A stretch of DNA of 64,000 nt from Acidimicrobiaceae bacterium. GTDB taxonomy: Bacteria; Actinomycetota; Acidimicrobiia; Actinomarinales; Actinomarinaceae. The notes under the pieces are model-generated. The model did not search any database. It was given only the letters and a program-made list of their open reading frames with translations, and was not told the origin of the DNA. Made by a program: the position numbers and the translations under genes. Shown one piece after another: positions 2,460 to 63,443 of the stretch; positions within the stretch are counted from its first letter, which is position 1; the number at the start of each line of letters is the position of its first letter. Location of the stretch: NCBI GenBank assembly GCA_028344675.1, contig JAOMBT010000003.1, positions 288 to 64,287 on the forward strand. Reading direction: 5' to 3'.

Positions 2460-2496
2460 CCAACTCCTTTAACTTTTTATATGATACTATTTAGAT

Positions 2497-2733
2497 ATGG
2501 ATATCAAACTTGAATTTTGTGTAGTTTGAAACTACACCCCTCGTGCAGTTAGTACGATTGAAGATATTTTAGAAAAATATGGAAACACGGTTGAATCAAT
2601 TAATTTGATTCCAAGTGGTGGTGGAGTATTTGAATTTCAATTAAATGGAAAATTACTTTTTTCAAAAAAAGAATTAGGAAGACACTCTGAAGATGGAGAA
2701 ATTCTAAAGTTAATTGAAGAATCACTTAGTTGA
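2497..2733 (+). CDS. SelW/SelT/SelH (Rdx) family selenoprotein with a CxxU redox motif; in-frame UGA (Sec) at 2527..2529
   Basis: Absent from the ORF track because of the in-frame TGA. Manual translation: MDIKLEFCVV-U-NYTPRAVSTIEDILEKYGNTVESINLIPSGGGVFEFQLNGKLLFSKKELGRHSEDGEILKLIEESLS. This matches the Rdx-fold pattern: CxxU near the N-terminus, P-x-GGG-x-FE, and S-K-x3-GR-x-P/S-E. Confidence 0.85.
2519..2537 (+). promoter_or_regulatory. Perfect 8-bp hairpin GTGTAGTT-TGA-AACTACAC with the Sec UGA codon in the loop (candidate recoding/SECIS-related structure)
   Basis: The inverted repeat was read directly. An alternative overlapping downstream hairpin (ACTACAC...GTG...TAGT, about 2531..2553) is also possible. 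Confidence 0.5.
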
Positions 2734-3464
2734 CCTTTCCATTTGAGTTAACTTTATTTGAAGTAATTTTTATTGCTTCACTACTATTCATTAGCTCCGC
2801 AGTACAAGGTGTTCTTGGATTTGGCTTTGCGGTAATTGCTTCTCCCATAATTGTTCAAATTGAACCTAGCTTGGTTCCTCAATTGTTATCTTTACTAGGT
2901 TTTCCATTAGCAATCAGAGTATTTTATCGGGAGAAGGAAGAAGTTGACCTTTCTAAAGTAAAACCACTTATTATTGGCAGGTTAGTTGGTGGACCAATTG
3001 GGCTTTTTTTACTTTTAAATCTATCAGAAAAGTACTTGTCAATCGCAGTGGGATTTATAGTTTTCATAGCTGGTATAGGTTCTTTTTTTGGTTGGGTTAT
3101 AAACAGAAATATCTTCAATTCCTTTCTTGCAGGAACTTTTTCAGGTGTATTTGGAATGGTTGCAGCAATTGGTGGCCCTCCTGTTGCATTGCTGTACAGG
3201 AACACTAAATCTCAAGAATTTCGTCCATCTCTAAATAGTGTTTTCAGTATAGGTATTGTTATAACCCTCTTGCTTTTATTATTCAGCGGTAATTTACTAA
3301 GGGACCATTTTTTACTTTTTATTATTTTTCTTCCATTTGTCTTAATTGGACTTAGGGTTTCTAGCACCCTTTTCTCTAAAGTTTCTGATAAATTCATATC
3401 TCATGCAGTAACTTATTTCTCATTACTATCTGGACTATATGTAATTTTGAGAAACATAAATTAG
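2730..3464 (+). CDS. TSUP family (TauE/SafE-like) anion exporter membrane protein
   Basis: 244-aa polytopic membrane ORF with the two-repeat architecture and Gly-rich helices typical of TauE/SafE. Its TTG start overlaps the TGA stop of the Rdx gene (TTGA). Confidence 0.7.
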   Translation: MTFPFELTLFEVIFIASLLFISSAVQGVLGFGFAVIASPIIVQIEPSLVPQLLSLLGFPLAIRVFYREKEEVDLSKVKPLIIGRLVGGPIGLFLLLNLSEKYLSIAVGFIVFIAGIGSFFGWVINRNIFNSFLAGTFSGVFGMVAAIGGPPVALLYRNTKSQEFRPSLNSVFSIGIVITLLLLLFSGNLLRDHFLLFIIFLPFVLIGLRVSSTLFSKVSDKFISHAVTYFSLLSGLYVILRNIN

Positions 3465-10825: not shown

Positions 10826-10873
10826 GTAGGAATTTGAGTTTCATTTAAGAGTTCAATCAAGTACTATTTTTCT

Positions 10874-12424
10874 ATGGTGAAATTGCTAAGTAAAATAGGA
10901 GCATTTTTTAGAAATGTTGTTGTTTTAAAGTGGGCAGTACAATTTATTTTTCTCGGTGGTCTTATTGCTCTTATTTTTAATTATTTAAATATTGCTGTTG
11001 GTAATTTAGCTAATACAAATATTGCTTTCTCATGGGGATTTTTAGGAGAAACACCGGGAGTTTCAATTGCTGAAGGACTTTATACACTTCCTAAATCTGG
11101 TCTTCAAATGCTACAGACTGGAATGCTCAATATGTTACGTATCACAGTAACTGGGATAGTGGCTGCGACATTTTTTGGTACGATTCTTGGTATTGCAAGA
11201 TTATCTAATAACTATATTGTAGAAAAGACTGCTACTTCTCTCTTAGAGGTTGTCAGAAATGTTCCTTTATTAGTTCAAATTTTATTTTTCCAGGCTTTAA
11301 TTCTTTCACTACCAAGACTAGAAGTTTATGATGTTGGATCTGTACTGTTCCATGCTAGTTCAAAAGGAGTAGCCCTATCCTGGCCAAACAGACAAGATGG
11401 AGCATGGATGTTTATGCTTTATTTTTTAATAACCATTTACATCAGTAATCGTGTTTATAAACAAAGAGTTAAATTATTAGAAGAAGAAGGAAGAGAGACA
11501 AAACCGTTTCTTTGGTCTTTTTCAGCTTTAATTATATTATTAGCTGCTGGCTGGTTTGGGGGCTATAGGATTGTTGGAATAATTGGATTTGTCTCTGGTT
11601 TTATTTCACAAGGCCTTGAGCTACTTCCAGGTCTTTTTTATCAAGCTTTATTATCTATTTTAGCAGGTTATTTTTCATTCAGATCAGTAAGAAAACAGAT
11701 TCAAAGTAAAAGATCTGGAGAACTACAGGGTAAATATAGTGATGATGACTACTTTAAAATGATTATTACTATTGTTATCGCTCTAATATTTATCGCATTA
11801 ATGTTTGCTCCTGTAGGTCAAGGTATTGCTAAATTCTTAGTTGGAGACGAACCAACCTTTAAATCTGACTGGGGACTACCACAATTTTTTGGTGGAATTT
11901 CAAATGCACTTGATTGGTCTATTACAGGTACTCCTTATGAGTTAAATATGGCTGAAATTCAACAAGTTGGAACAACAAAATTTAAAAGATATTCTAATGA
12001 AGTTGGAAAAAGTTTAACTGTTGGGTATTTTGCTACCTGGATGGGTGTTGTTATTTATACAGCAATATTTATTTCTGAAATAGTTAGAGCTGGAATTATG
12101 GCAGTTTCTAAAGGTCAATCCGAAGCTGGCTTATCTCTTGGTTTAAGAAGAAGTGCACTCTTGAGGCTAATTGTTCTTCCACAAGCGGTAAGAATAATGC
12201 TCCCCCCAATGGGAAATCAATATCTTAATTTAGCAAAAAACACATCTCTAGGAATTGCTGTTGGGTTTCCAGAGGTAGTTGCTGTTGGACAAACACTATA
12301 TAATCAAGAAGGTCAAACCCTACCAGTTTTTCTTATTTGGATGATATTTTTTAGTACAGTGAGTTTAACCCTTTCAAGTATTGTCAATTATTACAATCGA
12401 AAACTAAAGATAGTAGAAAGATGA
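10874..12424 (+). CDS. Amino-acid ABC transporter permease (AapQ-like, enlarged)
   Basis: 516-aa polytopic ORF whose C-terminal part carries the EAA-type permease loop (SKGQSEAGLSLGLRRSALLRLIVLPQAVRIMLPPMGNQ). Confidence 0.8.
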   Translation: MVKLLSKIGAFFRNVVVLKWAVQFIFLGGLIALIFNYLNIAVGNLANTNIAFSWGFLGETPGVSIAEGLYTLPKSGLQMLQTGMLNMLRITVTGIVAATFFGTILGIARLSNNYIVEKTATSLLEVVRNVPLLVQILFFQALILSLPRLEVYDVGSVLFHASSKGVALSWPNRQDGAWMFMLYFLITIYISNRVYKQRVKLLEEEGRETKPFLWSFSALIILLAAGWFGGYRIVGIIGFVSGFISQGLELLPGLFYQALLSILAGYFSFRSVRKQIQSKRSGELQGKYSDDDYFKMIITIVIALIFIALMFAPVGQGIAKFLVGDEPTFKSDWGLPQFFGGISNALDWSITGTPYELNMAEIQQVGTTKFKRYSNEVGKSLTVGYFATWMGVVIYTAIFISEIVRAGIMAVSKGQSEAGLSLGLRRSALLRLIVLPQAVRIMLPPMGNQYLNLAKNTSLGIAVGFPEVVAVGQTLYNQEGQTLPVFLIWMIFFSTVSLTLSSIVNYYNRKLKIVER

Positions 12425-14223
12425 TGAATATAGACTTAAAAAAACAAACTAGGGTCATAAAAGAAAATTTATTTTCTTCTCCTGTATCTACATTGTTAAC
12501 GTTTCTTACCAGCTACATAATGATAAGTTTTTTTAGGGGAATGTTTGGTTTTGCAACAGCTCCAGATAAAGATTGGTTGTCAGTATTAAACAACATGCAA
12601 CTTTATATGGTTCAAGCTTATCCAGAATCTGATTTTATAAGAATCTGGATTTGTGTAGGTTTAGGTTTTATATTTTCCGGTCTTTCTGTAGGACTCTGGG
12701 AAACTGGTGAAAAAACATCTCTCAGTAAATTGTGTTTAACATTTTCAAAAATAATTTTTGGCATTATTTTTCTTACCCTTATTGCTCCAACTACTTCTGT
12801 TATTGTAAGTACAGCTACTGGAATAAGAGAACAAGTAGATGTTTTTTCATACGCTGAAAGAATTCCTTTATTAAGTATATTATTGGGACTATTAGTAGTA
12901 TTTTTTCTACTCTCAAAAATTAACCTAAACTTTAATAAGTCATTTTTAGTATCAATATATTTATTTGTTCCGATAGTTTTTTTGTGGCTTATGAAAATTC
13001 CAACTATTAAATTAGATGCAGAAAATCAACGAGTATTTCCCGATCCATTAATGCCAATAGCAAATTCTACAAAAATACCATGGACTTTAATATGGATGTC
13101 TTTCGTAGCCGCTTATTTAATTGGTATATATTTTAAGAATAAAAAACAGTTTAAAACTGCAGTTTCTATTTCGTGGGTATTACTACCATTGTTAATTTTT
13201 TCATGGATTTTCAAAAAACCTCTTATTGACTTAAATGAACTTATTAGAAATGATATTCCAGTATTTATTGGATTTTTACTAGTAGGCGTATTAACTATAT
13301 ATTTTATTAATAATAAAATTGTTGAGAAGTTCTATGGTTATTACTTAGGACTTCTAGTGATCGTTACATTAGCTTCTCTGTTTTTAAAAGTTATCCTACT
13401 TGTAAAAGCCGGTCTATTATTACTTTTACTGTTTTCAGTTATTATTCCAGCAGTTTCTACTTCTGCAAAAGGTAAAAGAAGCTTGACTATTGTGTGGATA
13501 GTATCTTTAACAACAACTGCATTTTTACTTGAAGGAGGAACTTCGACTACTCAGATAGTAGTTCCTGGCTCAAGTATTTTTGGAGGATTTTCACTAACAT
13601 GGCTATTGGCAATATTTGGGACATATGTGTCTTTTCCCCTAGGAGTTCTATTAGCTCTAGGCAGAAACTCTTCTCTTCCAATTATTAAAGGTGTTTGCAC
13701 AGGAATAATTGAACTTGTTAGATCTGTCCCATACATTACCTGGCTATTTTTTGCCAGCGTAACGATGGCAGTATTTTTACCTGACGGTGTAGAGTTTAAT
13801 CTCATAGTTAGAGTCTTGATTGTTACAGCTTTTTTCAGTGGTGCTTATTTTGCAGAAAATATTAGAGGTGGCCTACAGTCAATACCCAAAGGACAATTCG
13901 AGGCTGCAGATGCAATTGGCATGAATACTGTGCAAAAGACGTCATTGATTGTGCTACCACAAGCTTTGAGGGCAATAGTTCCAACTCTAGTTAGCAGTAT
14001 CATTACTGGATTTAAGGATTCTAGCCTCGTAACAATTATTGGATTATTTGACTTTCTCACAATTGGCCGAATGGTTATCGGCAATCAATCAATCCCCATA
14101 AACTTTATTGGACATGATAGAGAAAACTTACTATTTATTGCGTTGGTTTATTGGATTTTTACATTTACATTATCTAGAAGGAGTATGAAGTTTGAAAAGC
14201 GATTAGGATTAGGTGAAAGGTAA
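12421..14223 (+). CDS. Amino-acid ABC transporter permease (AapM-like) with a roughly 380-aa extra N-terminal multi-TM region
   Basis: 600-aa ORF. Its C-terminal third has the permease loop [33 protein letters not shown]. It overlaps the upstream gene by 4 nt. Confidence 0.8.
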
Positions 14224-17381: not shown

Positions 17382-17438
17382 AAGCCTATTTTTAGAATAC
17401 TTAACAAATTCTTATTTTGCGAGTTTTATAATGCATGT

Positions 17439-25297: not shown

Positions 25298-25400
25298 TTA
25301 ATAAAATATATCACATTTTGAAATTTATCCAAAATATTTTTACATAAATTTTAAATTTTCAATAATTAGTAACTTTTCACTCACCTGATAGTATTAACTA

Positions 25401-32945: not shown

Positions 32946-33983
32946 ATGAGACTTACAGAGTATTCTCATGGTGCTGGTTGAGCATGTAAACTTTCTCAGA
33001 AAGAACTTGCTCAGGTACTGAAGCACTTTAAACAACAAAATAAATCAGACTCTCATAAAATACTTGTTGGTCTTGACACTCCTGATGATGGAGGGGTAAT
33101 TGAATTACAAAGTGGTGTTAAAATTATACAGACCGTTGATTTCTTTACACCCATATTAGATAATCCTTTTGATTGGGGAAGGGTCGCGGCAGCAAATGCC
33201 CTATCTGATATATATGCAATGGGAGGTAAACCATTATCAGCTTTACAGCTTGTTTCATGGCCAAGAGAAGACTTATCATTTGAGATACTTTCAGAAGTAC
33301 TAAATGGTGGTTTGCAAATAATGAATCAAGCCGGCTGTACTATTATTGGCGGACACAGCATAGATGACAAAGAACCCAAATATGGTTTTGCAGTTACTGG
33401 AATCATCGAAGATAATATTTACAGAAAGACAAATATAAAAGAAGGTGATAGCTTATATTTAACTAAACCTCTTGGATCAGGAATTATCTCATCAGCAATT
33501 AAAAAGAATATCGCAAGCAAAGATTGCATTAAAGAAGTAACGGATTTAATGACAACTCTGAATGACAAAGCTCTTCAGTTAGCATCTGAAATGAACGCTA
33601 ATGCAATTACGGATGTTACTGGTTTTGGTTTACTGGGGCATTTGATTGAAATGGTTGGTGAAAATGACTTGTCTGTTAACCTATTTTCAAATAAAATACC
33701 GTTTCTTGAATATGCAGAAAAATATCTAGAACAGGGGATTTATCCTTCTGGAAGCACTAGAAACTTAGAGTCTATTAGAGAACATATACATTTTGATAAA
33801 AGTGACGAATCAATAGTAAACCTAATGGCAGATGCACAAACCAGTGGAGGTTTACTGTTTTCATCTCCGAAAAAAACTTCTGAAAATATTGACTCTATTT
33901 GTCAAAAAATAGGAATTGAAATATGGGAAATAGGAAATATTGTTTCGAAATATAAAAATAAAGTCAATATTATTAAGTCTTAA
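32946..33983 (+). CDS. selD: Selenide, water dikinase (selenophosphate synthetase) SelD, selenocysteine-containing; in-frame UGA at 32979..32981
   Basis: The ORF track lists only 33219..33983. The same frame is open from the ATG at 32946 apart from one TGA. It translates to MRLTEYSHGAG-U-ACKLSQKELAQVLKHF...VGLDTPDDGGVIEL...QTVDFFTPILDNPFDWGRVAAANALSDIYAMGGKP. This matches the SelD N-terminus, with U at the catalytic Cys (E. coli GAGCGCK). Confidence 0.9.
32979..33013 (+). promoter_or_regulatory. Candidate SECIS-type hairpin starting at the selD UGA
   Basis: Outer stem TGAGCA (32979-32984) pairs with TGCTCA (33008-33013). Inner stem CTTTC (32991-32995) pairs with GAAAG (32999-33003). The UGA codon itself is base-paired at the foot of the structure. 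Confidence 0.5.
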
Positions 33984-56169: not shown

Positions 56170-57534
56170 TCAATCCCAGTTCAAGTGTAAAAATTCATTA
56201 CTTTCATGAAGCTGAACTCTATGAGCACCAAAGTAATCTCTTTGAGCTTGTATCAAAGATGATGGATTGAACTCTGAAGATGAAGTGATATACCAGTTAA
56301 GAGATGAGTACATAACAGGTGTAGGAATATTATTTTCAATACAACTTGATAATAAATTTTTTGTATTTTTGAGTCTTGAATCTAGGTTGTTTTGAATTTG
56401 TTTTGATTCAACTATAGATTTATTAGGAGGACTATCTTTTAAAAATGATTTGATTTCTTTTAATAGGTCTGAACGAATAATGCACCCCTCTAACCAATTT
56501 TGCATAACGTCCTCAATTTTAATTTCAAGATTTTCTTGTTTACTAAAGTACTCAATAAATAAGATACCTTGAGTTAGTGTTGAGAGGCGAGAAAAATAAA
56601 TAGCTTCTTTCAGTTCATTAGGATTAATTTTTATTTTTATATTCTTTGTAGTGATTGGCCAAATTTTTTGGTAATTGCTTTCCACCCTTGCGTTGAACGC
56701 TTCAAAAATACTTGGAAGCGGAAAACCATAATTTAAACTAGTTTCAACAGTAAGCTTGCCTGTTCCTTTATGGTTTGCATTAGGCTTAATTTTATCTATT
56801 AAAAATTCACCATCTTTTTGAGTTTTTAATATCTTAGATGTAATTTCAATCAAGTATGAAGACTGTTGTTCTTTTTTTAAGTTATTAAAAAATTCTGATG
56901 CAGCAATATTATTAAATCCTGCATTTCTTAATATGTTATATGCTTCAGCAAGTATTTGCATTTCAGCATATTCAATTCCATTATGAAGCATTTTAATAAA
57001 ATGCCCAGTACCGAATCCTTTATACAGCCCAACACATTCTCGACCGTCAGCTTTTGCTGCAACTTTACTAATCAAAGATATCAAATCTTCCGGAATTTCT
57101 TTTTCATAGCCAAGCATCAATGCAGGACCTGTCCTAGCACCTGTCTCGCCACCAGAAATACCCATTCCAATAAATTCTATTCCTTGTTCATTACACCTCT
57201 TCCCTAAATCGATACTATCTAGGTAATATGCATTACCCCCATCAATTAATGTGTCTTTTTCCTCTATAAAATTAAATAAATTTTCTACAACACTGTTTGT
57301 CGCTTCACCAGATGGAACAAGTATTAAAATTTTTCTAGGCTTTGGAATGCTTTTAACAAATTCGTCTAAATCTGTAAAACCAGAAATATTATTAGATGAG
57401 TCTTCTGAAATGAGTTGATTAATTTTGTTTTGAGATTTGTTATAAACACTCACATTTGCGCCATTGTCGGAAAAATTAAGAGCAATATTCCTGCCCATTA
57501 CTCCTATTCCAACAATTCCAATGTGGTTGTTCAT
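56170..57534 (-). CDS. gnd: 6-phosphogluconate dehydrogenase (decarboxylating)
   Basis: 454 aa with an N-terminal NADP-binding GIVGIGVMGRNIALN and the conserved GTGHFIKMLHNGIEY segment. Confidence 0.9.
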   Translation of the reverse strand: MNNHIGIVGIGVMGRNIALNFSDNGANVSVYNKSQNKINQLISEDSSNNISGFTDLDEFVKSIPKPRKILILVPSGEATNSVVENLFNFIEEKDTLIDGGNAYYLDSIDLGKRCNEQGIEFIGMGISGGETGARTGPALMLGYEKEIPEDLISLISKVAAKADGRECVGLYKGFGTGHFIKMLHNGIEYAEMQILAEAYNILRNAGFNNIAASEFFNNLKKEQQSSYLIEITSKILKTQKDGEFLIDKIKPNANHKGTGKLTVETSLNYGFPLPSIFEAFNARVESNYQKIWPITTKNIKIKINPNELKEAIYFSRLSTLTQGILFIEYFSKQENLEIKIEDVMQNWLEGCIIRSDLLKEIKSFLKDSPPNKSIVESKQIQNNLDSRLKNTKNLLSSCIENNIPTPVMYSSLNWYITSSSEFNPSSLIQAQRDYFGAHRVQLHESNEFLHLNWD

Positions 57535-58850
57535 GATAAGATTTTAACAACTTCTCTTTCAAGTAAATTGTTAAGATAGTAGTTTCTTATTTCAACATCA
57601 ACTTCAAGCTGATTCTCACTATTAATTACATTTTTAATTTTTGAGTACTTGTGAAGAGAGTCCAGATTTTTTGGAGAGGTTAAAAGTGTAACTGTTTGTA
57701 AATCTCCAAGAATTTGAAATGTAATTTCTGAAACCAATTTATCTAAATTCGTACCCTCTGTTGATGAAATAAAATATGCATCTTCATATTTTTCTTTTAA
57801 AAAATTTAAAGAAGCTGTATCAATTCTGTCTATTTTATTAAAAACTAGTATTTCTTGAACGTTAGATTCAATCTGATCTAATATTTCATGAACTGTATTT
57901 ATGTGCATTTGTGGGATTGCTGATGCGGCATCGACTACATGAATAAGTAAATTAGCATCTTTAACTACGGTGAGCGTGGACTTAAAAGATTCAATTAATG
58001 TAGTAGGTAGATTTTGAATAAAGCCAACTGTATCTGAGATAATAATAGGCTCGGTTATTTCATCTATCTTTAATTCCCTCTGCAGAGAATCAACAGTAGC
58101 AAACAACTCGTTTGCAACGTAGGTTTTTGAGGATGTAATCTTTTCAAGCAAAGTTGATTTTCCTGCATTTGTGTAACCTACAATTGATACAAGCGGTGTA
58201 TTATTTTTTCTTCTGAAACTAGATTGAACCTGTCTTTGTTTTGCAACTTTTTTAATTTCTCTTTTTAGTCTGTTAATTCTGTTGTCAATTAATCTACTAT
58301 CAGTTTCAAGCTTTGCTTCCCCAGGACCCCTTGTGCCAATTCCACCACCTTGTTGGTTTAGTGTTTTGCCCAAACCAGCCAAACGTGGTTTTAAATAAGT
58401 AGTTAAAGCCAATTCAACTTGCAAGGTTGCTTCTTTAGATTGGGCATGAAGTGCAAATATATCAAGAATTAAGCCTGTTCTATCTACAACATCGCATTGA
58501 AACAGGGTTCGTAATTCTTTTTGCTGATTGGGTGTTAGCTCACAATCAAATAAGACTACATCAATATCATTTGATTTTGATATATCAACTAATTCAGCAA
58601 TTGACCCTTTTCCAATAAATGTCTTTGGGTCAACTTTTTCTACTCGTTTTGTTTGTATGATAGTGGGACTAGATCCTGCGGTCTTGACTAAATTTACCAA
58701 TTCTTTTAAGGATTCTTCTTTGTCTGCTCTTGTTTCATTTTTAAGAATTATGCCAACTAACAAGGCTTTTTGAGTTGTTACAAATATATCTCTATCTGAT
58801 ACCGTAAGTAACTTTTTATCAGATTGATTTGGGTTATTTCTTTGATTCAA
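57531..58850 (-). CDS. hflX: GTPase HflX
   Basis: 439 aa with an HflX N-terminal domain, a coiled linker and a G domain (GYTNAGKST, DTVGF, NKID). Confidence 0.9.
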   Translation of the reverse strand: MNQRNNPNQSDKKLLTVSDRDIFVTTQKALLVGIILKNETRADKEESLKELVNLVKTAGSSPTIIQTKRVEKVDPKTFIGKGSIAELVDISKSNDIDVVLFDCELTPNQQKELRTLFQCDVVDRTGLILDIFALHAQSKEATLQVELALTTYLKPRLAGLGKTLNQQGGGIGTRGPGEAKLETDSRLIDNRINRLKREIKKVAKQRQVQSSFRRKNNTPLVSIVGYTNAGKSTLLEKITSSKTYVANELFATVDSLQRELKIDEITEPIIISDTVGFIQNLPTTLIESFKSTLTVVKDANLLIHVVDAASAIPQMHINTVHEILDQIESNVQEILVFNKIDRIDTASLNFLKEKYEDAYFISSTEGTNLDKLVSEITFQILGDLQTVTLLTSPKNLDSLHKYSKIKNVINSENQLEVDVEIRNYYLNNLLEREVVKILS

Positions 58851-59180
58851 TTATTTCATTATTGGTAGTTGACCATTATCAGATGTATTTGAAATCTCTT
58901 CTTCTGCAATAATTTGGGATTCTCTTACAGCTAAAACTACCTTCCCTGTTGGTGGCCATATAAATTTCCAAGCACCGCTTGCAACAGCCCAGAATTGCTT
59001 TTCAGTATCCACATCAATTAGTGGAAGAGCTTCTGAAGTTTTTTCACTTCCTGCAGGAACTAAAAGCCCCGACTTTGTAATCGTTTCTTCTCTTAAGTGT
59101 CCAACTCTCCAACCTGGAGAAACTTTAAAACCTGCCGGAGCAAACTGGATGTCTTCGAGTAAATCCTTATCTTCTATCAT
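58851..59180 (-). CDS. Hypothetical 109-aa protein with possible remote GroES/Cpn10-like similarity
   Basis: ORF track. The segment REETITKSGLLVPAGSEK and the C-terminal VVLAVRESQIIA loosely resemble the GroES mobile-loop and C-terminal strands. It abuts the hflX start with no gap. Confidence 0.35.
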   Translation of the reverse strand: MIEDKDLLEDIQFAPAGFKVSPGWRVGHLREETITKSGLLVPAGSEKTSEALPLIDVDTEKQFWAVASGAWKFIWPPTGKVVLAVRESQIIAEEEISNTSDNGQLPIMK

Positions 59181-59215
59181 TTTCTTATAATAAACATAAA
59201 AAAACTATAAATTAG

Positions 59216-59307
59216 CGGAGGTGGACAGGAATCGAACCCGCCAAAGACTTTTACACCTTTCAACAGTTTTGAAGACTGTGGAGCCCACCAGGCGCTCATT
59301 CACCTCC
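59216..59307 (-). tRNA. selC: tRNA-Sec (anticodon UCA), selC; no encoded CCA
   Basis: Reverse strand: GGAGGTGA-AT-GAGCGCC-TGGT-GGGCTC-C-ACAGT-CTTCAAA-ACTGT-[21-nt variable arm]-GCGGG-TTCGATT-CCTGT-CCACCTCC-G. The anticodon loop CTTCAAA matches my recollection of the E. coli selC loop. There are 13 nt between the T-loop and the discriminator (8+5 design). The D stem is long with a 4-nt loop. Total length is 92 nt. Confidence 0.85.
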
Positions 59308-59356
59308 ATTATTAAGACTAGTTATATAAAAAAATATTATTGGAATAGAATTAAGA

Positions 59357-59944
59357 ATGATGAGTAATTTTAAAAATACTTTTAATCAATTAAAAAAGGA
59401 AAGAGAGCTTAGTAATAAGCAGGTAGCTTCATTTACTGGTGTAAAGATTAAAGAAGTTAAGAAATGGGAGACAGGTACAAGTTTTCCTACAGACATCAAA
59501 GTTGTTAATGCTTTAGAGGGCATATTGGGAACCGAGATAACTAAGTCTCTTGAAGGTTTTAAGACTAAAGAGAATAGATCTTCTTCTTTAATTGGTTCAG
59601 AAGATGAGATATTTAAAGTTAATAATGAAAAGCTTGAGGTTTCTAATACAAGAATTGACAGACTTCGAAATATTTTTCAACGTGAAACTCAATCTAATAA
59701 CGACTTTAATTATGATTCAGACTTTGAAATCTCTTTTGACAATCAAGCGCTTCCAAAAAGAGCAATAGTCAATGAAGAAAACAATTCAGAACAACCGTAT
59801 TTGTACGATGATAAGCAACTTGGGTTTTATATATCTAGAAATATTAAAACTGTGGGTTTACTTTCTATTTTAGGTTTAGTAATTATTAGTTTTTTCAGAC
59901 TTTTTTGGGAATCATTCAATCTCTTCATTAACAATATATTGTGA
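59357..59944 (+). CDS. XRE-type helix-turn-helix protein with a C-terminal transmembrane anchor
   Basis: 195 aa with an N-terminal HTH (LKKERELSNKQVASFTGVKIKEVKKWETG) and a C-terminal hydrophobic helix (TVGLLSILGLVIISFF). Its stop overlaps the ctaA GTG start. Confidence 0.6.
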   Translation: MMSNFKNTFNQLKKERELSNKQVASFTGVKIKEVKKWETGTSFPTDIKVVNALEGILGTEITKSLEGFKTKENRSSSLIGSEDEIFKVNNEKLEVSNTRIDRLRNIFQRETQSNNDFNYDSDFEISFDNQALPKRAIVNEENNSEQPYLYDDKQLGFYISRNIKTVGLLSILGLVIISFFRLFWESFNLFINNIL

Positions 59945-60825
59945 AGTTAATTACCTATACAAAGCTTGGTATTGTCTTATCAATATTATCTATTTTGGCA
60001 GGAGCATTTGTTAGAGCCACTGGTTCGGGAGATGGCTGTGGTTCAACATGGCCTACATGTAAAGGAAAAATTATTCCCCAATTATCAGACACATCTGAAG
60101 TAATAGAATTTTCTCACCGATCAATTAGTGGAATCTTACTCATTGTTACACTCTTAATTTTTATTAAATCAAGAAAAATTAGTAAAGGAAGTATTGCCAG
60201 AAGAACTGTAAATTTTTTAACATTTTTTGTTGTCTTTGAGGCTGCTATAGGGGCAGTTATTGTTTTATATGAATGGGTTGGGTTAAATAGTTCTCTTCCT
60301 AGGATCATTGCTGTTCCAATACATTTAGTCAATACTTTTGGATTGCTTGCAAGTTACGCCATACTTTATAAAATTCTACTTAATAATTTTAAAAATATTA
60401 ACCAGCTTTGGGATAGACGATTTATTTTTGTAGCTTTTTTATTTTTACTTAGCGGGGCAACAGGTTCAATCACAGCTTTAGCAGATGTTTTATTTCCAAG
60501 TTCTTCATTCTACGAGGGACTTATGGAAGACTTCGATAGAACCTCGGAGCTTTTAACAAGATTAAGAATTCTTCACCCAGTAGTAGCATCTGGTTTATCA
60601 GCAGTGTTAATAATTGAATCAAGAAAAATTAAAAAAGATTACAAAATTGATGTTAAATTTTTACAATTACTCGTAATTATTGCCGTAACTCTTGGCATAA
60701 TGAATGTTTTGTTTAATATTGTACTTTTCTTGAGCATTTTCCATCTTGCAATCGCTGATTTATTGTGGATTACATATATATATGTAAGTATGGATAAGAT
60801 AAAAAATAAATCAGCGATTAATTAG
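59941..60825 (+). CDS. ctaA: Heme A synthase (COX15/CtaA family)
   Basis: 294-aa polytopic protein. The N-terminal VRATGSGDGCGSTWPTC motif and conserved His residues (EFSHR, PIHL, ILHP) are typical of CtaA. Confidence 0.8.
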   Translation: MKLITYTKLGIVLSILSILAGAFVRATGSGDGCGSTWPTCKGKIIPQLSDTSEVIEFSHRSISGILLIVTLLIFIKSRKISKGSIARRTVNFLTFFVVFEAAIGAVIVLYEWVGLNSSLPRIIAVPIHLVNTFGLLASYAILYKILLNNFKNINQLWDRRFIFVAFLFLLSGATGSITALADVLFPSSSFYEGLMEDFDRTSELLTRLRILHPVVASGLSAVLIIESRKIKKDYKIDVKFLQLLVIIAVTLGIMNVLFNIVLFLSIFHLAIADLLWITYIYVSMDKIKNKSAIN

Positions 60826-60894
60826 CTTTAATTACAGCACAGTTATAAACTTCATCTCTGTAACTAGATACAACTATGGGAAGTCAAAATAATA

Positions 60895-61950
60895 ATGGTA
60901 ACAAAAACAATACCTTCAAAGCCAAAGCCCAACACTAAAGAGGCTGACCTTTCTAATGAAGATACAACTTTAACTCCTGAACAGGAAAAAGCAGCAAGAG
61001 AAAAAGCTAAATCACTTACAAAAAAACTTGCAGATGATAAAGGAAAGCTAACAACTGACTTAGTAAGCCAATATTTAACAGCAATTGGAAACTTTGATCT
61101 TTTGACAGCTGAGCAAGAAGTTGAGTTGGCACAAAAAATTGAATCTGGAGAAAAAGCATCTATTAAGCTTGGAAAAAAACAATTCAAGGATAAAAAAGGT
61201 GAAATAAGATTAAAGAGAGATAGAAAAAAAGGCGCTGAAGCAAAAGATGCATTTCTTACAGCAAATCTGCGATTAGTTGTTGCAAATGCAAGACGATATG
61301 CAAACACCTCTGGTATTGACTTTCTTGACTTAATTCAAGAGGGAAACCTCGGTTTAATTCGAGCAGTTGAAAAATTTGACTGGCGTAAAGGATTTAAATT
61401 TTCGACTTACGCAACATGGTGGATAAGACAGGCAATTACAAGAGCAATAGCTGACAAATCTAGGACTGTAAGAATTCCAGTTCACCTTCATGACACAATG
61501 GCGGCTGTTCGAGCCGCACAAGCTCAACTAAAAGCAGAATTGGGTAGAGATCCAAAACCCCAAGAAATTGCAAAAGAAGCTGGTGTAGGTGTTGATAAAG
61601 TTGAACTAGCCTTGAGTGTTGCTGATACAGTTTCACTAGAACAGCCTGTTGGTGAAGATGGAGCACAACTTGGTGATTTTATTCAAGATGAAGATGCGAG
61701 TGATCCATCTTTAATTGTTCAAGACCTAGATGTAGCTGAGAGCCTAAGGGACAGTATTAGTAGACTTCCTGATAGGGAAGGCAGAATACTCGCTTTAAGA
61801 TATGGTTTTTATGATGGAGTACCAAGGACACTTGAAGAAATAGGTGAAGAGTTTGATTTAACCCGTGAAAGAATTAGACAGCTTGAAAAATTAGCTCTGT
61901 GTAGATTAAGACACCCTTCATTTGGAATCAGAGAACAAGACTTAGTCTAA
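60895..61950 (+). CDS. sigA: Principal-type RNA polymerase sigma-70 factor (HrdB/SigA-like)
   Basis: 351 aa with a Lys-rich N-terminus and regions 1.2 ([11 protein letters not shown]), 2 ([42 protein letters not shown]), 3 and 4 ([20 protein letters not shown]). Confidence 0.9.
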
Positions 61951-62006
61951 TTTTTATTATTTAATTTCATTTCATTACTTTTTGTTAAATTGTTAATCTA
62001 TATTAC

Positions 62007-63443
62007 ATGTTCGAATATCTCGATATCGCAATAGATTCAGCTATTGAAAGTGGTGCAAAATACTCTGACGCGCGAGTATTGATTTCAAAATCCAGAAGCA
62101 TTGCAGCAAAAAATGGAGAAATTGAAAACTTTAATGAAAATGAAAAAATAGGGATTGGAATTAGAGCATTAGTTGGTTCATCCTGGGGTTTTTATTCAAC
62201 TTATAACTTATCAAATGAATCATTAAAGCTTGCTGGTAAGAAATCGTACGAAATTGCTAAAGCATCAGCTATAGTTTCTGGTAAAGATATGCCTTTTGCT
62301 GATGTGCCTGTAATTCAAGATAGCTACACCACACCTCATAATGAAAATCCTTTTTCTGTGTCAAGTTCTGACCAAATCAATTTATTAATTGAATCTACTG
62401 AAAAAATGAAAAAGCTAGGTAGTTCGCGTGCGTTTGGAAGACTTGATTTTTGGGATACAGAAAAGTGGTTTGCATCAAGTCAGGGTCATAAAATTTATCA
62501 AAACATAATTGAATCAGGTGGTGGGATTTCTTCTCTATCAGTTGGTGATGGAGAAACTCAAATTAGATCTTATCCACAATCTTTTGGTGAATACAGAACT
62601 GGGGGTTGGGAGGTAGTAAAAAGTTTTGAATTCGAAAATCATATAGAAAGATTGGCTGAAGAGTCTCAAAGATTATTGGTTGCTCCACAATGTCCAGAAG
62701 GAACAATGGATTTAATTTTAGAAGGAAGTCAACTAGCTCTTCAAATACACGAGTCAGTTGGACATGCAATTGAACTCGATAGAATTTTAGGCTGGGAAGC
62801 TGCATATGCTGGGACTTCTCATTTAGAGTTAGAAAAATTAAATAAACACAGATATGGTTCTGATTTAATGAACATTGTTGCAGATGCAACTCTTCCAGGA
62901 GCATTAGCGACATTTAAGTATGATGATGAGGGAACCCCAGCTCAACGAGTAGACATTGTTAAAGAAGGAATATGGACTGGAGTGCTTTCAGGACGTGACA
63001 GTGCAGCTGTTGCAGGTGTAGATCCCGGAGGTATGGTTCGTGCAGATGGTTTTGGAAGATTACCAATGGTAAGAATGACAAACGTAGGACTACTTCCAGG
63101 AGATTCATCATTAGAAGAAATTATACAGGCAACTGATAATGGTATATATATGGAAACCAACCGATCTTGGTCTATTGATGACATAAGATTAAATTTTCAA
63201 TTTGGTTGTGAGGCTGGCTGGTTAGTAAAAAATGGAAAAATTATAGATATGGTAAAAAACCCAACATATACCGGAATTACTCCTGAATTTTGGGGAAATA
63301 TGGACATGCTATCAGGAGAAGATGAGTGGGTTTTTTGGGGAACTCCAAACTGTGGCAAAGGTCAGCCAAGCCAGATAGGACATACCGGACATCCTGCATC
63401 ACCCGCTAGATTTAAAAATACACGAATTGGAGTACGAGGATGA
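62007..63443 (+). CDS. tldD: TldD family metalloprotease
   Basis: 478 aa with the HExxxH motif (IHESVGHAIE) and a TldD-like C-terminal beta-rich region. Confidence 0.8.
   Translation: MFEYLDIAIDSAIESGAKYSDARVLISKSRSIAAKNGEIENFNENEKIGIGIRALVGSSWGFYSTYNLSNESLKLAGKKSYEIAKASAIVSGKDMPFADVPVIQDSYTTPHNENPFSVSSSDQINLLIESTEKMKKLGSSRAFGRLDFWDTEKWFASSQGHKIYQNIIESGGGISSLSVGDGETQIRSYPQSFGEYRTGGWEVVKSFEFENHIERLAEESQRLLVAPQCPEGTMDLILEGSQLALQIHESVGHAIELDRILGWEAAYAGTSHLELEKLNKHRYGSDLMNIVADATLPGALATFKYDDEGTPAQRVDIVKEGIWTGVLSGRDSAAVAGVDPGGMVRADGFGRLPMVRMTNVGLLPGDSSLEEIIQATDNGIYMETNRSWSIDDIRLNFQFGCEAGWLVKNGKIIDMVKNPTYTGITPEFWGNMDMLSGEDEWVFWGTPNCGKGQPSQIGHTGHPASPARFKNTRIGVRG

Follow-up and report, generated by a model that had tools for sequence, protein, structure and literature searches.

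Background

The SelW-like proteins are the best-known family of marine selenoproteins, and the gene that we describe here is an ordinary, already familiar member of it. The bacterial members (Pfam PF10262, formerly PF05169; TIGR02174) have about 75-80 residues, a CxxU motif after the first beta-strand, a UGA-encoded selenocysteine (Sec), a SECIS immediately downstream of the UGA, and a marine origin, and our gene shares all of these features. In the classical layout of the E. coli fdhF type, the UGA stands at the base of a long hairpin that pairs with sequence downstream. A coding-region structure that acts beside a SECIS is known from eukaryotes: the SRE of SEPN1, a stem-loop by the Sec UGA, modulates readthrough alongside the SECIS. 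Its place is downstream of the UGA; it works from outside the ribosome, is phylogenetically conserved, and has been validated experimentally.

The bSECISearch consensus for bacterial elements calls for an apical loop of 3-9 nt on an upper stem of 4-16 bp, a G within the first two loop positions, a distance of 16-37 nt from UGA to loop, and an MFE cut-off of -7.5 kcal/mol (PMC13188914). During decoding, the ribosome tunnel occludes about 11 nt of the mRNA, and the SECIS is unwound in its lower portion (PMC4513850). For the organism group of interest here, a preprint on complete Actinomarina genomes describes a universal Sec machinery, with a Sec-form SelD and a divergent selB in all of the genomes; the most widespread predicted selenoprotein of the genus is a deep-Sep family of 78 residues with a single Sec, which had no UniRef90 hit, is called "uncharacterized", and has no SECIS reported for it (bioRxiv 10.64898/2026.04.03.716425).

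A first-pass annotation of a 64-kb stretch of DNA (hereafter the window, meaning the whole stretch that was analysed) had proposed an unlisted gene of the SelW/Rdx family, with its Sec codon in the loop of a perfect hairpin that might itself be a recoding signal. We have followed up both the gene and the hairpin; the features discussed below are collected in Table 1.

Table 1. Features of the window discussed in the text, in order of position.
Feature	Coordinates	Strand	Basis and remarks
TACTAT, a -10-like TANNNT hexamer at -12..-7 from the ATG	2485..2490	+	conserved offset
SelW-like (Rdx family) selenoprotein gene (selW), 78 codons plus TGA stop, CxxU = C8-V-V-U11	2497..2733	+	translation; Pfam and TIGR profiles; PDB homologues
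UGA-centred hairpin, arms 2519-2526 and 2530-2537, UGA triloop	2519..2537	+	fold; Actinomarinales-specific, probably incidental to CVV-U-NYT coding
Putative Sec codon UGA, codon 11	2527..2529	+	in-frame TGA; aligned to the second Cys of PDB CxxC homologues
Predicted bacterial SECIS hairpin, stem 2541-2546/2552-2557 (UCGUGC/GUACGA), loop AGUUA 2547-2551	2541..2557	+	folds; covariation
TauE/SafE-family membrane protein gene	2730..3464	+	Pfam PF01925, E=3e-20; TTG start
selD (selenophosphate synthetase), Sec form, TGA 32979-32981, GAG-U-ACK	32946..33983	+	tblastn; translation; fold
tRNA-Sec (selC), anticodon UCA	59215..59307	-	Rfam RF01852, 73.6 bits; ARAGORN

The selW gene and its product

The translation reads MDIKLEFCVV, an internal stop (the TGA of codon 11), NYTPRAVSTIEDILEKYGNTVESINLIPSGGGVFEFQLNGKLLFSKKELGRHSEDGEILKLIEESLS, and the terminal stop. 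With the internal TGA taken as Sec, this agrees with the 78-residue protein that had been proposed: the product begins MDIKLEFCVV-Sec-NYTPRAV and ends in EESLS, and the three hallmark motifs of the Rdx family that had been named (CVVU, PSGGGVFEF and SKKELGRHSED) are all found in it. We searched profiles with a Cys substituted for the internal stop. Both Rdx/SelW/SelT/SelH models, against which the first-pass annotation had suggested a check, match above their curated cut-offs: PF10262 (Rdx) at E=8.3e-17 and 61.6 bits (cut-off 22.6), covering residues 3-74 of 78, and NCBIfam TIGR02174 (SelT/SelW/SelH, CXXU_selWTH) at 54.7 bits (cut-off 34.2) and E=9.4e-15. The equivalog model NF041051 (SelTWH_Campy) scores 83.5 bits, below its cut-off of 88; by its profile scores the product would belong to a subfamily related to this equivalog, not to the equivalog itself.

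Homologues of known structure include 2fa8 (Atu0228, E=3.7e-8) and 2p0g (described as "selenoprotein W-related protein"), both with a CxxC motif, as well as 2ojl, 3dex, and 2ljk. C8-V-V-U11 of the selW product aligns with C-T-Q-C of Atu0228 and of 2ojl, so that U11 corresponds to their second Cys, and homology to these solved Rdx-fold proteins makes a thioredoxin-like Rdx fold likely for the selW product as well. Related loci place the host in Candidatus Actinomarina (OCS155, Acidimicrobiia), a lineage of about 32% GC, the closest locus having 95% identity (L001). Profile matches, CxxC homologues and an in-frame TGA in 80 of 80 loci (below) thus bear out the proposal of an unlisted gene, which, judged by sequence homology, we identify as an unannotated SelW-like/Rdx selenoprotein gene of this genus.

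The gene is represented in a large protein collection solely by products of 84-92 residues, with W at the Sec position and the TGA stop read through. They stem from gene calling under genetic code 4 on contigs that are short and AT-rich.

Sec machinery and conservation of the Sec codon

The window carries two components of a Sec system of its own. The selD product, from its ATG at 32946, is 41% identical to E. coli SelD (tblastn, E=8e-80). As both a tRNA-Sec gene and this Sec-form selD occur on the same 64-kb stretch, the organism decodes UGA as Sec. We looked for further selenoprotein genes among the open reading frames of the window that are split by a single TGA and found none that was credible beyond selW and selD.

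We fetched 80 orthologous selW loci, 33 from Actinomarinales and 47 from outside that order, including Chloroflexota, Neomarinimicrobiota/Fidelibacterota, Nitrospinales, and Gemmatimonas. (In a metagenome pattern scan, about 35 of the 80 loci turned out to be unrelated GC-rich matches, which we discarded.) All 80 orthologous loci have an in-frame TGA at the CxxU position, and the CxxU motif is likewise present in all 80. The TGA is also invariant across the 58 Actinomarinales haplotypes, as it is in the 47 loci of other lineages.

Promoter and operon context

The -10-like hexamer upstream of selW has the form TANNNT at the same offset (-12..-7) in all 34 Actinomarinales selW loci, including those in which the upstream gene is a different one. 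Within the window, a TANNNT stands exactly at -12 in 14 of 57 genes, against a background of about two per offset. This motif at this offset is the actinobacterial signature of leaderless mRNAs, and it suggests that the selW transcript probably starts at its own AUG.

At the other end of the gene, the tetranucleotide TTGA (2730-2733) contains, as overlapping codons, both the TTG start of the TauE/SafE-family gene and the TGA stop of selW. The overlap and the selW-tauE adjacency are found in 34 of 34 Actinomarinales loci and are absent outside the order. Because of the overlap, the two genes probably form one operon with translational coupling of the transporter gene to selW.

A SECIS downstream of the UGA

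Eleven nucleotides past the UGA, a small hairpin begins, and its loop starts 17 nt past the UGA (2530-2546 lie between). In a same-register alignment of 31 sequences, from Actinomarinales, several Chloroflexota, and one other member of the Acidimicrobiia, 98.9% of the cells of the helix are paired. Three of the six base pairs show compensatory changes: the outermost pair (2541:2557) occurs as U-A, C-G, G-C and A-U, and the pair 2544:2554 as U-A and G-C. None of 500 shuffles reached the observed covariation score. The G at the second loop position is invariant in 31 of 31 of these sequences, as is the T in the next column. At the codon level, CGT16, GCA17, GTT18, and ACG20, which encode the element, show zero substitutions over the 58 Actinomarinales haplotypes, and the frozen CGT and ACG are both rare codons in this genome (6% each).

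Other lineages have an equivalent hairpin, either at the same register or with a downstream shift of 4 nt, in most cases with a loop of the NGUNN type. A single RNAalifold consensus over all 67 sequences was limited to 4 bp, since the SECIS of this family occurs in two registers that are offset by 4 nt; splitting the alignment by register solved the problem.

The selW hairpin meets the bSECIS consensus in its 5-nt loop, its 6-bp stem, the G at loop position 2, and its 17-nt distance from UGA to loop. Its fold, taken from the UGA to +33, reaches -6.6 kcal/mol, slightly weaker than the -7.5 kcal/mol of the model; the published rule may fold another stretch. Where relatives carry GGC as codon 19, as in L008-L013, for example, one stem pair is G-C in place of G-U, and their SECIS would be more stable. 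Rfam covariance models run against 2440-2640 gave no SECIS match even at E<=10, only noise; bacterial elements are poorly represented in the Rfam SECIS models (bioRxiv 10.64898/2026.04.03.716425).

We infer that 2541-2557 is a canonical bacterial SECIS and that SelB would bind there. Its spacing, with the stem starting 11 nt after the UGA, is that of the minimal E. coli SECIS. By analogy with E. coli, this spacing would set the SECIS stem just outside the entrance of the ribosomal mRNA tunnel while the UGA occupies the A site (PMC4513850). On the reading that we hold to be probable, then, selW follows the standard bacterial route: SelB with Sec-tRNA(Sec) would bind the small hairpin UCGUGC-AGUUA-GUACGA, the UGA would be read as Sec, and the hairpin centred on the UGA would be mainly a by-product of coding.

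The hairpin centred on the UGA

A check of the sequence confirms the exact inverted repeat that had been reported: GTGTAGTT (2519-2526) and AACTACAC (2530-2537) are exact reverse complements over 8 bp on either side of the TGA. The hairpin is part of the MFE fold, with -7.9 kcal/mol and a z of -5.2 against dinucleotide shuffles of the 27-mer. It had been suggested that the hairpin might compete with an alternative downstream fold at about 2531..2553. This did not hold up, as only a 4-bp ACUA/UAGU helix can form there, and in the partition function the UGA-centred hairpin and the SECIS hairpin both have pairing probabilities near 1.

The repeat had further been called very unlikely to arise by chance. 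Its arms, though, are codons: the reverse complement of UGU-GUA-GUU (Cys-Val-Val) reads AAC-UAC-ACN (Asn-Tyr-Thr). For a null at this level, we resampled the synonymous codons of CVV-U-NYT with the codon usage of the window itself. All eight pairs formed in 16% of the draws (P=0.16) and at least seven of eight in 60% (P=0.60), and across the 64-kb window there are 2 perfect 8/3/8 palindromes against 2.7 expected, so in its pairing the hairpin is not unusual. What is unusual is its stability, which just 3% of the synonymous resamples match, an effect of AAC and TAC, the unpreferred C-ending codons, at Asn12 and Tyr13. Asn12 is AAC in 51 of the 58 haplotypes and Tyr13 is TAC in 49 of 58, compared with genome usages of 28% and 27%.

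A perfect 8-3-8 palindrome of 19 bp could also be a site in DNA, bound by a dimeric regulator of selW-tauE or of the divergent M3 peptidase gene; it lies 23-41 bp past the putative transcription start and, as seen from the start codon of the M3 peptidase gene, 60-78 bp upstream. There is no second copy of the palindrome in the 64-kb window, however, where the best other match has 3 mismatches and is within chance. The palindrome is kept in loci that have a different gene upstream in place of the M3 peptidase gene (L019, L028-L031), degrades in abundant lineages, and is accounted for by the coding sequence. We consider a regulator site very unlikely.

Comparison among the loci separates the hairpin from the Sec codon. 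At the UGA-centred site, most Actinomarinales have 7-9 paired bp, while the 47 loci elsewhere, all of them with Sec, have 0-4 contiguous bp. The flanking repeat is therefore not conserved in these 47 orthologues, which retain the Sec codon, the outcome that the first-pass annotation had named as counting against its hairpin proposal. The N-Y that follows the Sec is conserved at the protein level in nearly all of the 80 loci.

Within the Actinomarinales, at least seven of eight pairs are present in 55 of the 58 haplotypes and all eight in 37 of 58, compared with 16% under the null; the haplotypes are related, and the high frequency may reflect inheritance. Synonymous variants that break pairs have at least eight origins: GTC at Val10 arose in about five events, TGC at Cys8 once, and GTT or ATT occurs at codon 9. 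Three weakening changes are combined in L017, L018, and the GOS contig L103, where the hairpin reaches only -1.6 to -2.7 kcal/mol. L103 is an Actinomarina selW locus on contig AACY020563717.1, and AACY is the accession prefix of Sargasso Sea entries cited in PMC1088965. The protein of these three loci (P0054) is the variant found on the most contigs (892).

At third positions, the six arm codons took a mean of 3.2 parsimony steps against 6.2 for the rest of the gene (p=0.006). Codons 2-7, outside the helix, took a mean of 2.3 (p=0.002 against the rest of the gene) and do not differ from the arms (p=0.57). The arms and codons 2-7 being equally constrained, the constraint spans the whole 5' end of the gene rather than the hairpin specifically, and we rejected a synonymous constraint specific to the hairpin.

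Could the hairpin nonetheless be a selected auxiliary RNA element of the Actinomarinales, complementing the SECIS and tuning a probably leaderless mRNA? It might slow the first ribosome for SelB loading, insulate the folding of the SECIS, or stabilise the 5' end of the mRNA. The excess of full pairing just described would be expected from such an element, as would the unpreferred AAC12 and TAC13, each of which converts a G-U pair into G-C. At third positions, Val9 changed only twice and Tyr13 once, compared with about 6-7 times elsewhere; Val9 is GTA in 48 of 49 haplotypes with Val, while the remaining Val codons of the gene change freely. There is also one compensatory double change, in which Val9 GTA became Ile ATA together with Tyr13 TAC to TAT (G-C to A-U), present in 9 of 9 haplotypes of one clade. 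The weak SECIS, with a folding energy slightly weaker than the published cut-off, leaves room for a helper element, and the UGA is only 10 codons from the probable leaderless 5' end. Early recruitment of SelB matters, moreover, in outcompeting RF2 (PMC4513850).

Several of these points have another side. The compensatory change is one event on one branch, the codons outside the helix are as constrained as those within it, and variants that retain hardly any of the hairpin are abundant. A preference for AAC after the UGA is seen, too, in lineages of low GC that have no such hairpin (8 of 10 loci below 48% GC). Ordinary unwinding of base pairs slows the ribosome only 2-3 fold, and stem-loops that cause pausing have about 11-12 bp (PMC8861025), so that an 8-bp AU-rich helix would be unlikely to pause a ribosome. 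We also considered that the hairpin might keep the 5' AUG single-stranded, and rejected this: removing the hairpin in silico leaves the accessibility of the 5' end unchanged, with a P(unpaired) for nt 1-18 of 0.52 in the native sequence and 0.51 +/- 0.02 with resampled arms.

Taking both sides together, we regard the selected auxiliary element as unlikely, and place the chance of any selected RNA-level role for this hairpin in the same low range. A narrower form, in which the UGA-straddling helix and the weak SECIS act as a two-hairpin module on a leaderless mRNA, specific to Actinomarinales, that improves Sec insertion, seems to us less likely again; such a module could delay the pioneer ribosome until SelB is loaded, or stop the spacer from disturbing the folding of the SECIS. 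Absence of function is the conclusion that the comparative pattern and the geometry considered next point to, and the hairpin is probably mainly a by-product of the CVV-U-NYT peptide and AT-biased codon usage.

The original suggestion was stronger, namely that the hairpin is a non-canonical recoding signal, with the UGA presented or occluded by the loop and out of reach of RF2. The UGA does coincide exactly with the triloop that a perfect 8-bp helix closes, and the UGA of selD is likewise base-paired in the predicted fold. With the UGA in the A site, though, the P and E sites would be taken up by the 5' arm and the tunnel by the 3' arm; both arms being inside the ribosome, the helix would be melted and the codon could not be hidden from RF2, as judged from the ribosome footprint and helicase geometry (PMC4513850). 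Outside the Actinomarinales, 47 loci decode the same UGA with no such hairpin, and a conserved, covarying SECIS of canonical type stands downstream. As to selD, its UGA is indeed within structure, at the base of a long hairpin with a downstream partner strand, but this is the ordinary fdhF-type layout, in which the SECIS lower stem has the UGA at its base, and not the lineage-specific theme that had been suspected. Of the readings considered here, shielding of the codon is the one to which we give the least credence. Under standard SECIS-driven decoding, the UGA-centred hairpin would be dispensable for recoding and would not exist at the moment of decoding.

Implications and comparison with known systems

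What is added here to a familiar family is the family assignment, the definition of the SECIS, and the operon and leaderless context of the Actinomarina selW. The 78-residue deep-Sep family shares with our gene the organism, the length, and the single Sec, and the Sec-form SelD with an MRLT prefix occurs both in the preprint's Actinomarina genomes and here. From length, organism and prevalence, the two are almost certainly the same gene. If so, the most widespread, "uncharacterized" selenoprotein of Actinomarina may be annotated as a SelW-like/Rdx thiol-selenol oxidoreductase, and the tauE operon partner gives a lead to its physiological role. Compared with the preprint's family, the gene here has a Rdx/SelW-like assignment and a defined SECIS.

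There is also a caution. The genetic code can by itself produce a perfect hairpin at a Sec codon, since Cys-Val-Val and Asn-Tyr-Thr have codons that are reverse complements of each other; such a hairpin calls for comparative testing before it is called a signal. Should the residual signal in the hairpin turn out to have a function, this would extend bacterial SECIS architecture modestly and would be no new mechanism.

Relative to the SEPN1 SRE, the selW hairpin differs in straddling the UGA and in being confined to one bacterial order, and any function for it is only hypothetical. The canonical bacterial SECIS of the E. coli fdhF type is the counterpart of the downstream element, which is likewise a hairpin immediately 3' of the UGA with an early G in its small apical loop. 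The selW element differs in being short and weak (6 bp) and in having no lower stem that pairs to the UGA region; in the Actinomarinales, that region pairs with upstream codons instead. From the bacterial SelW-like selenoproteins, finally, the gene shows no essential difference, the Actinomarinales orthologue being set apart by its TTGA overlap with tauE and its probably leaderless mRNA.

The TauE/SafE-family gene beside selW

The gene for the SelW-like (Rdx family) selenoprotein, selW, adjoins one for a TauE/SafE-family (TSUP) membrane protein, and the TTGA overlap between the two, the TTG start and the adjacency itself are kept in 34 of 34 Actinomarinales loci; all three are absent from the loci of other lineages. 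Codons 77-78 of selW are likewise invariant at their third positions. Together, the conserved arrangement and these invariant positions suggest that the two genes are translationally coupled and that the selenoprotein is functionally tied to a transporter of sulfur or selenium anions.

A preprint on predicted selenoproteins of complete Actinomarina genomes (bioRxiv 10.64898/2026.04.03.716425) lists a further, third group of "selenoproteins", which matches K07090 and covers 49 genomes. Should this group correspond to the TauE-family gene beside selW, the prediction may be a false positive. None of the 34 copies examined carries an in-frame TGA. The copy at one orthologous locus, L027, is broken by in-frame TAA/TAG stops.

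Features considered in this part (window positions)
Feature	Position	Strand	Remarks
TauE/SafE-family (TSUP) gene	2730-3464	+	TTG start overlaps selW TGA stop (TTGA, 2730-2733)
selD, Sec form	32946-33983	+	TGA at 32979-32981; N-terminus MRLTEYSHGAG-U-ACK
tRNA-Sec (selC)	59215-59307	-	flanked by two unassigned ORFs, a small one at 58851-59180 and another at 59357-59944
TANNNT at -12 to -7, selW	2485-2490		
TANNNT at -12 to -7	10862-10867		
TANNNT at -12 to -7	17427-17432		
TANNNT at -12 to -7	25389-25394		

Annotation and expression of selW

Public protein collections hold no correctly called selW selenoprotein, only read-through products and fragments (entries P0001-P0093). The read-through products are 84-92 aa long and have Trp at the Sec position, the TGA stop having been read through; they are genetic code 4 miscalls from short AT-rich contigs. 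The remaining entries are C-terminal fragments of 42-65 aa.

Fourteen of the 57 window genes have TANNNT exactly at -12 to -7 from the start codon, a sharp peak over a background of about 2 per offset. Such a peak at -12 implies leaderless mRNAs for about a quarter of the window genes, selW among them. Clear AGGAG Shine-Dalgarno sequences precede other genes, for example selD and the gene for the M3 peptidase.

Sec-related loci and the SECIS

In the RNA fold of selD a long hairpin is predicted (UGAGCA...UGCUCA), with the UGA at its base. Another candidate, the stem-loop GCUCAG-GUA-CUG(A)AGC about 33 nt downstream, could be the part that SelB binds. Neither selA nor selB was recognised among the selC-flanking ORFs scanned with Pfam (56170-63443).

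Besides the one in selW, the sole perfect 8/3/8 palindrome in the window is ATTTTATT-AAT-AATAAAAT (13301-13319), which is AT-only and lies within ORF 12421-14223.

Across the SelW-like family the SECIS occurs in two registers relative to the UGA (alignment columns 30-50, equivalent to window 2541-2561; loci L034-L080). The loop begins 17 nt past the UGA in the Actinomarinales and some Chloroflexota, and 21 nt past it in the second register, of the GCCGUC-AGUUU-GGCGGC type, where the Ser codon AGU contributes to the loop.
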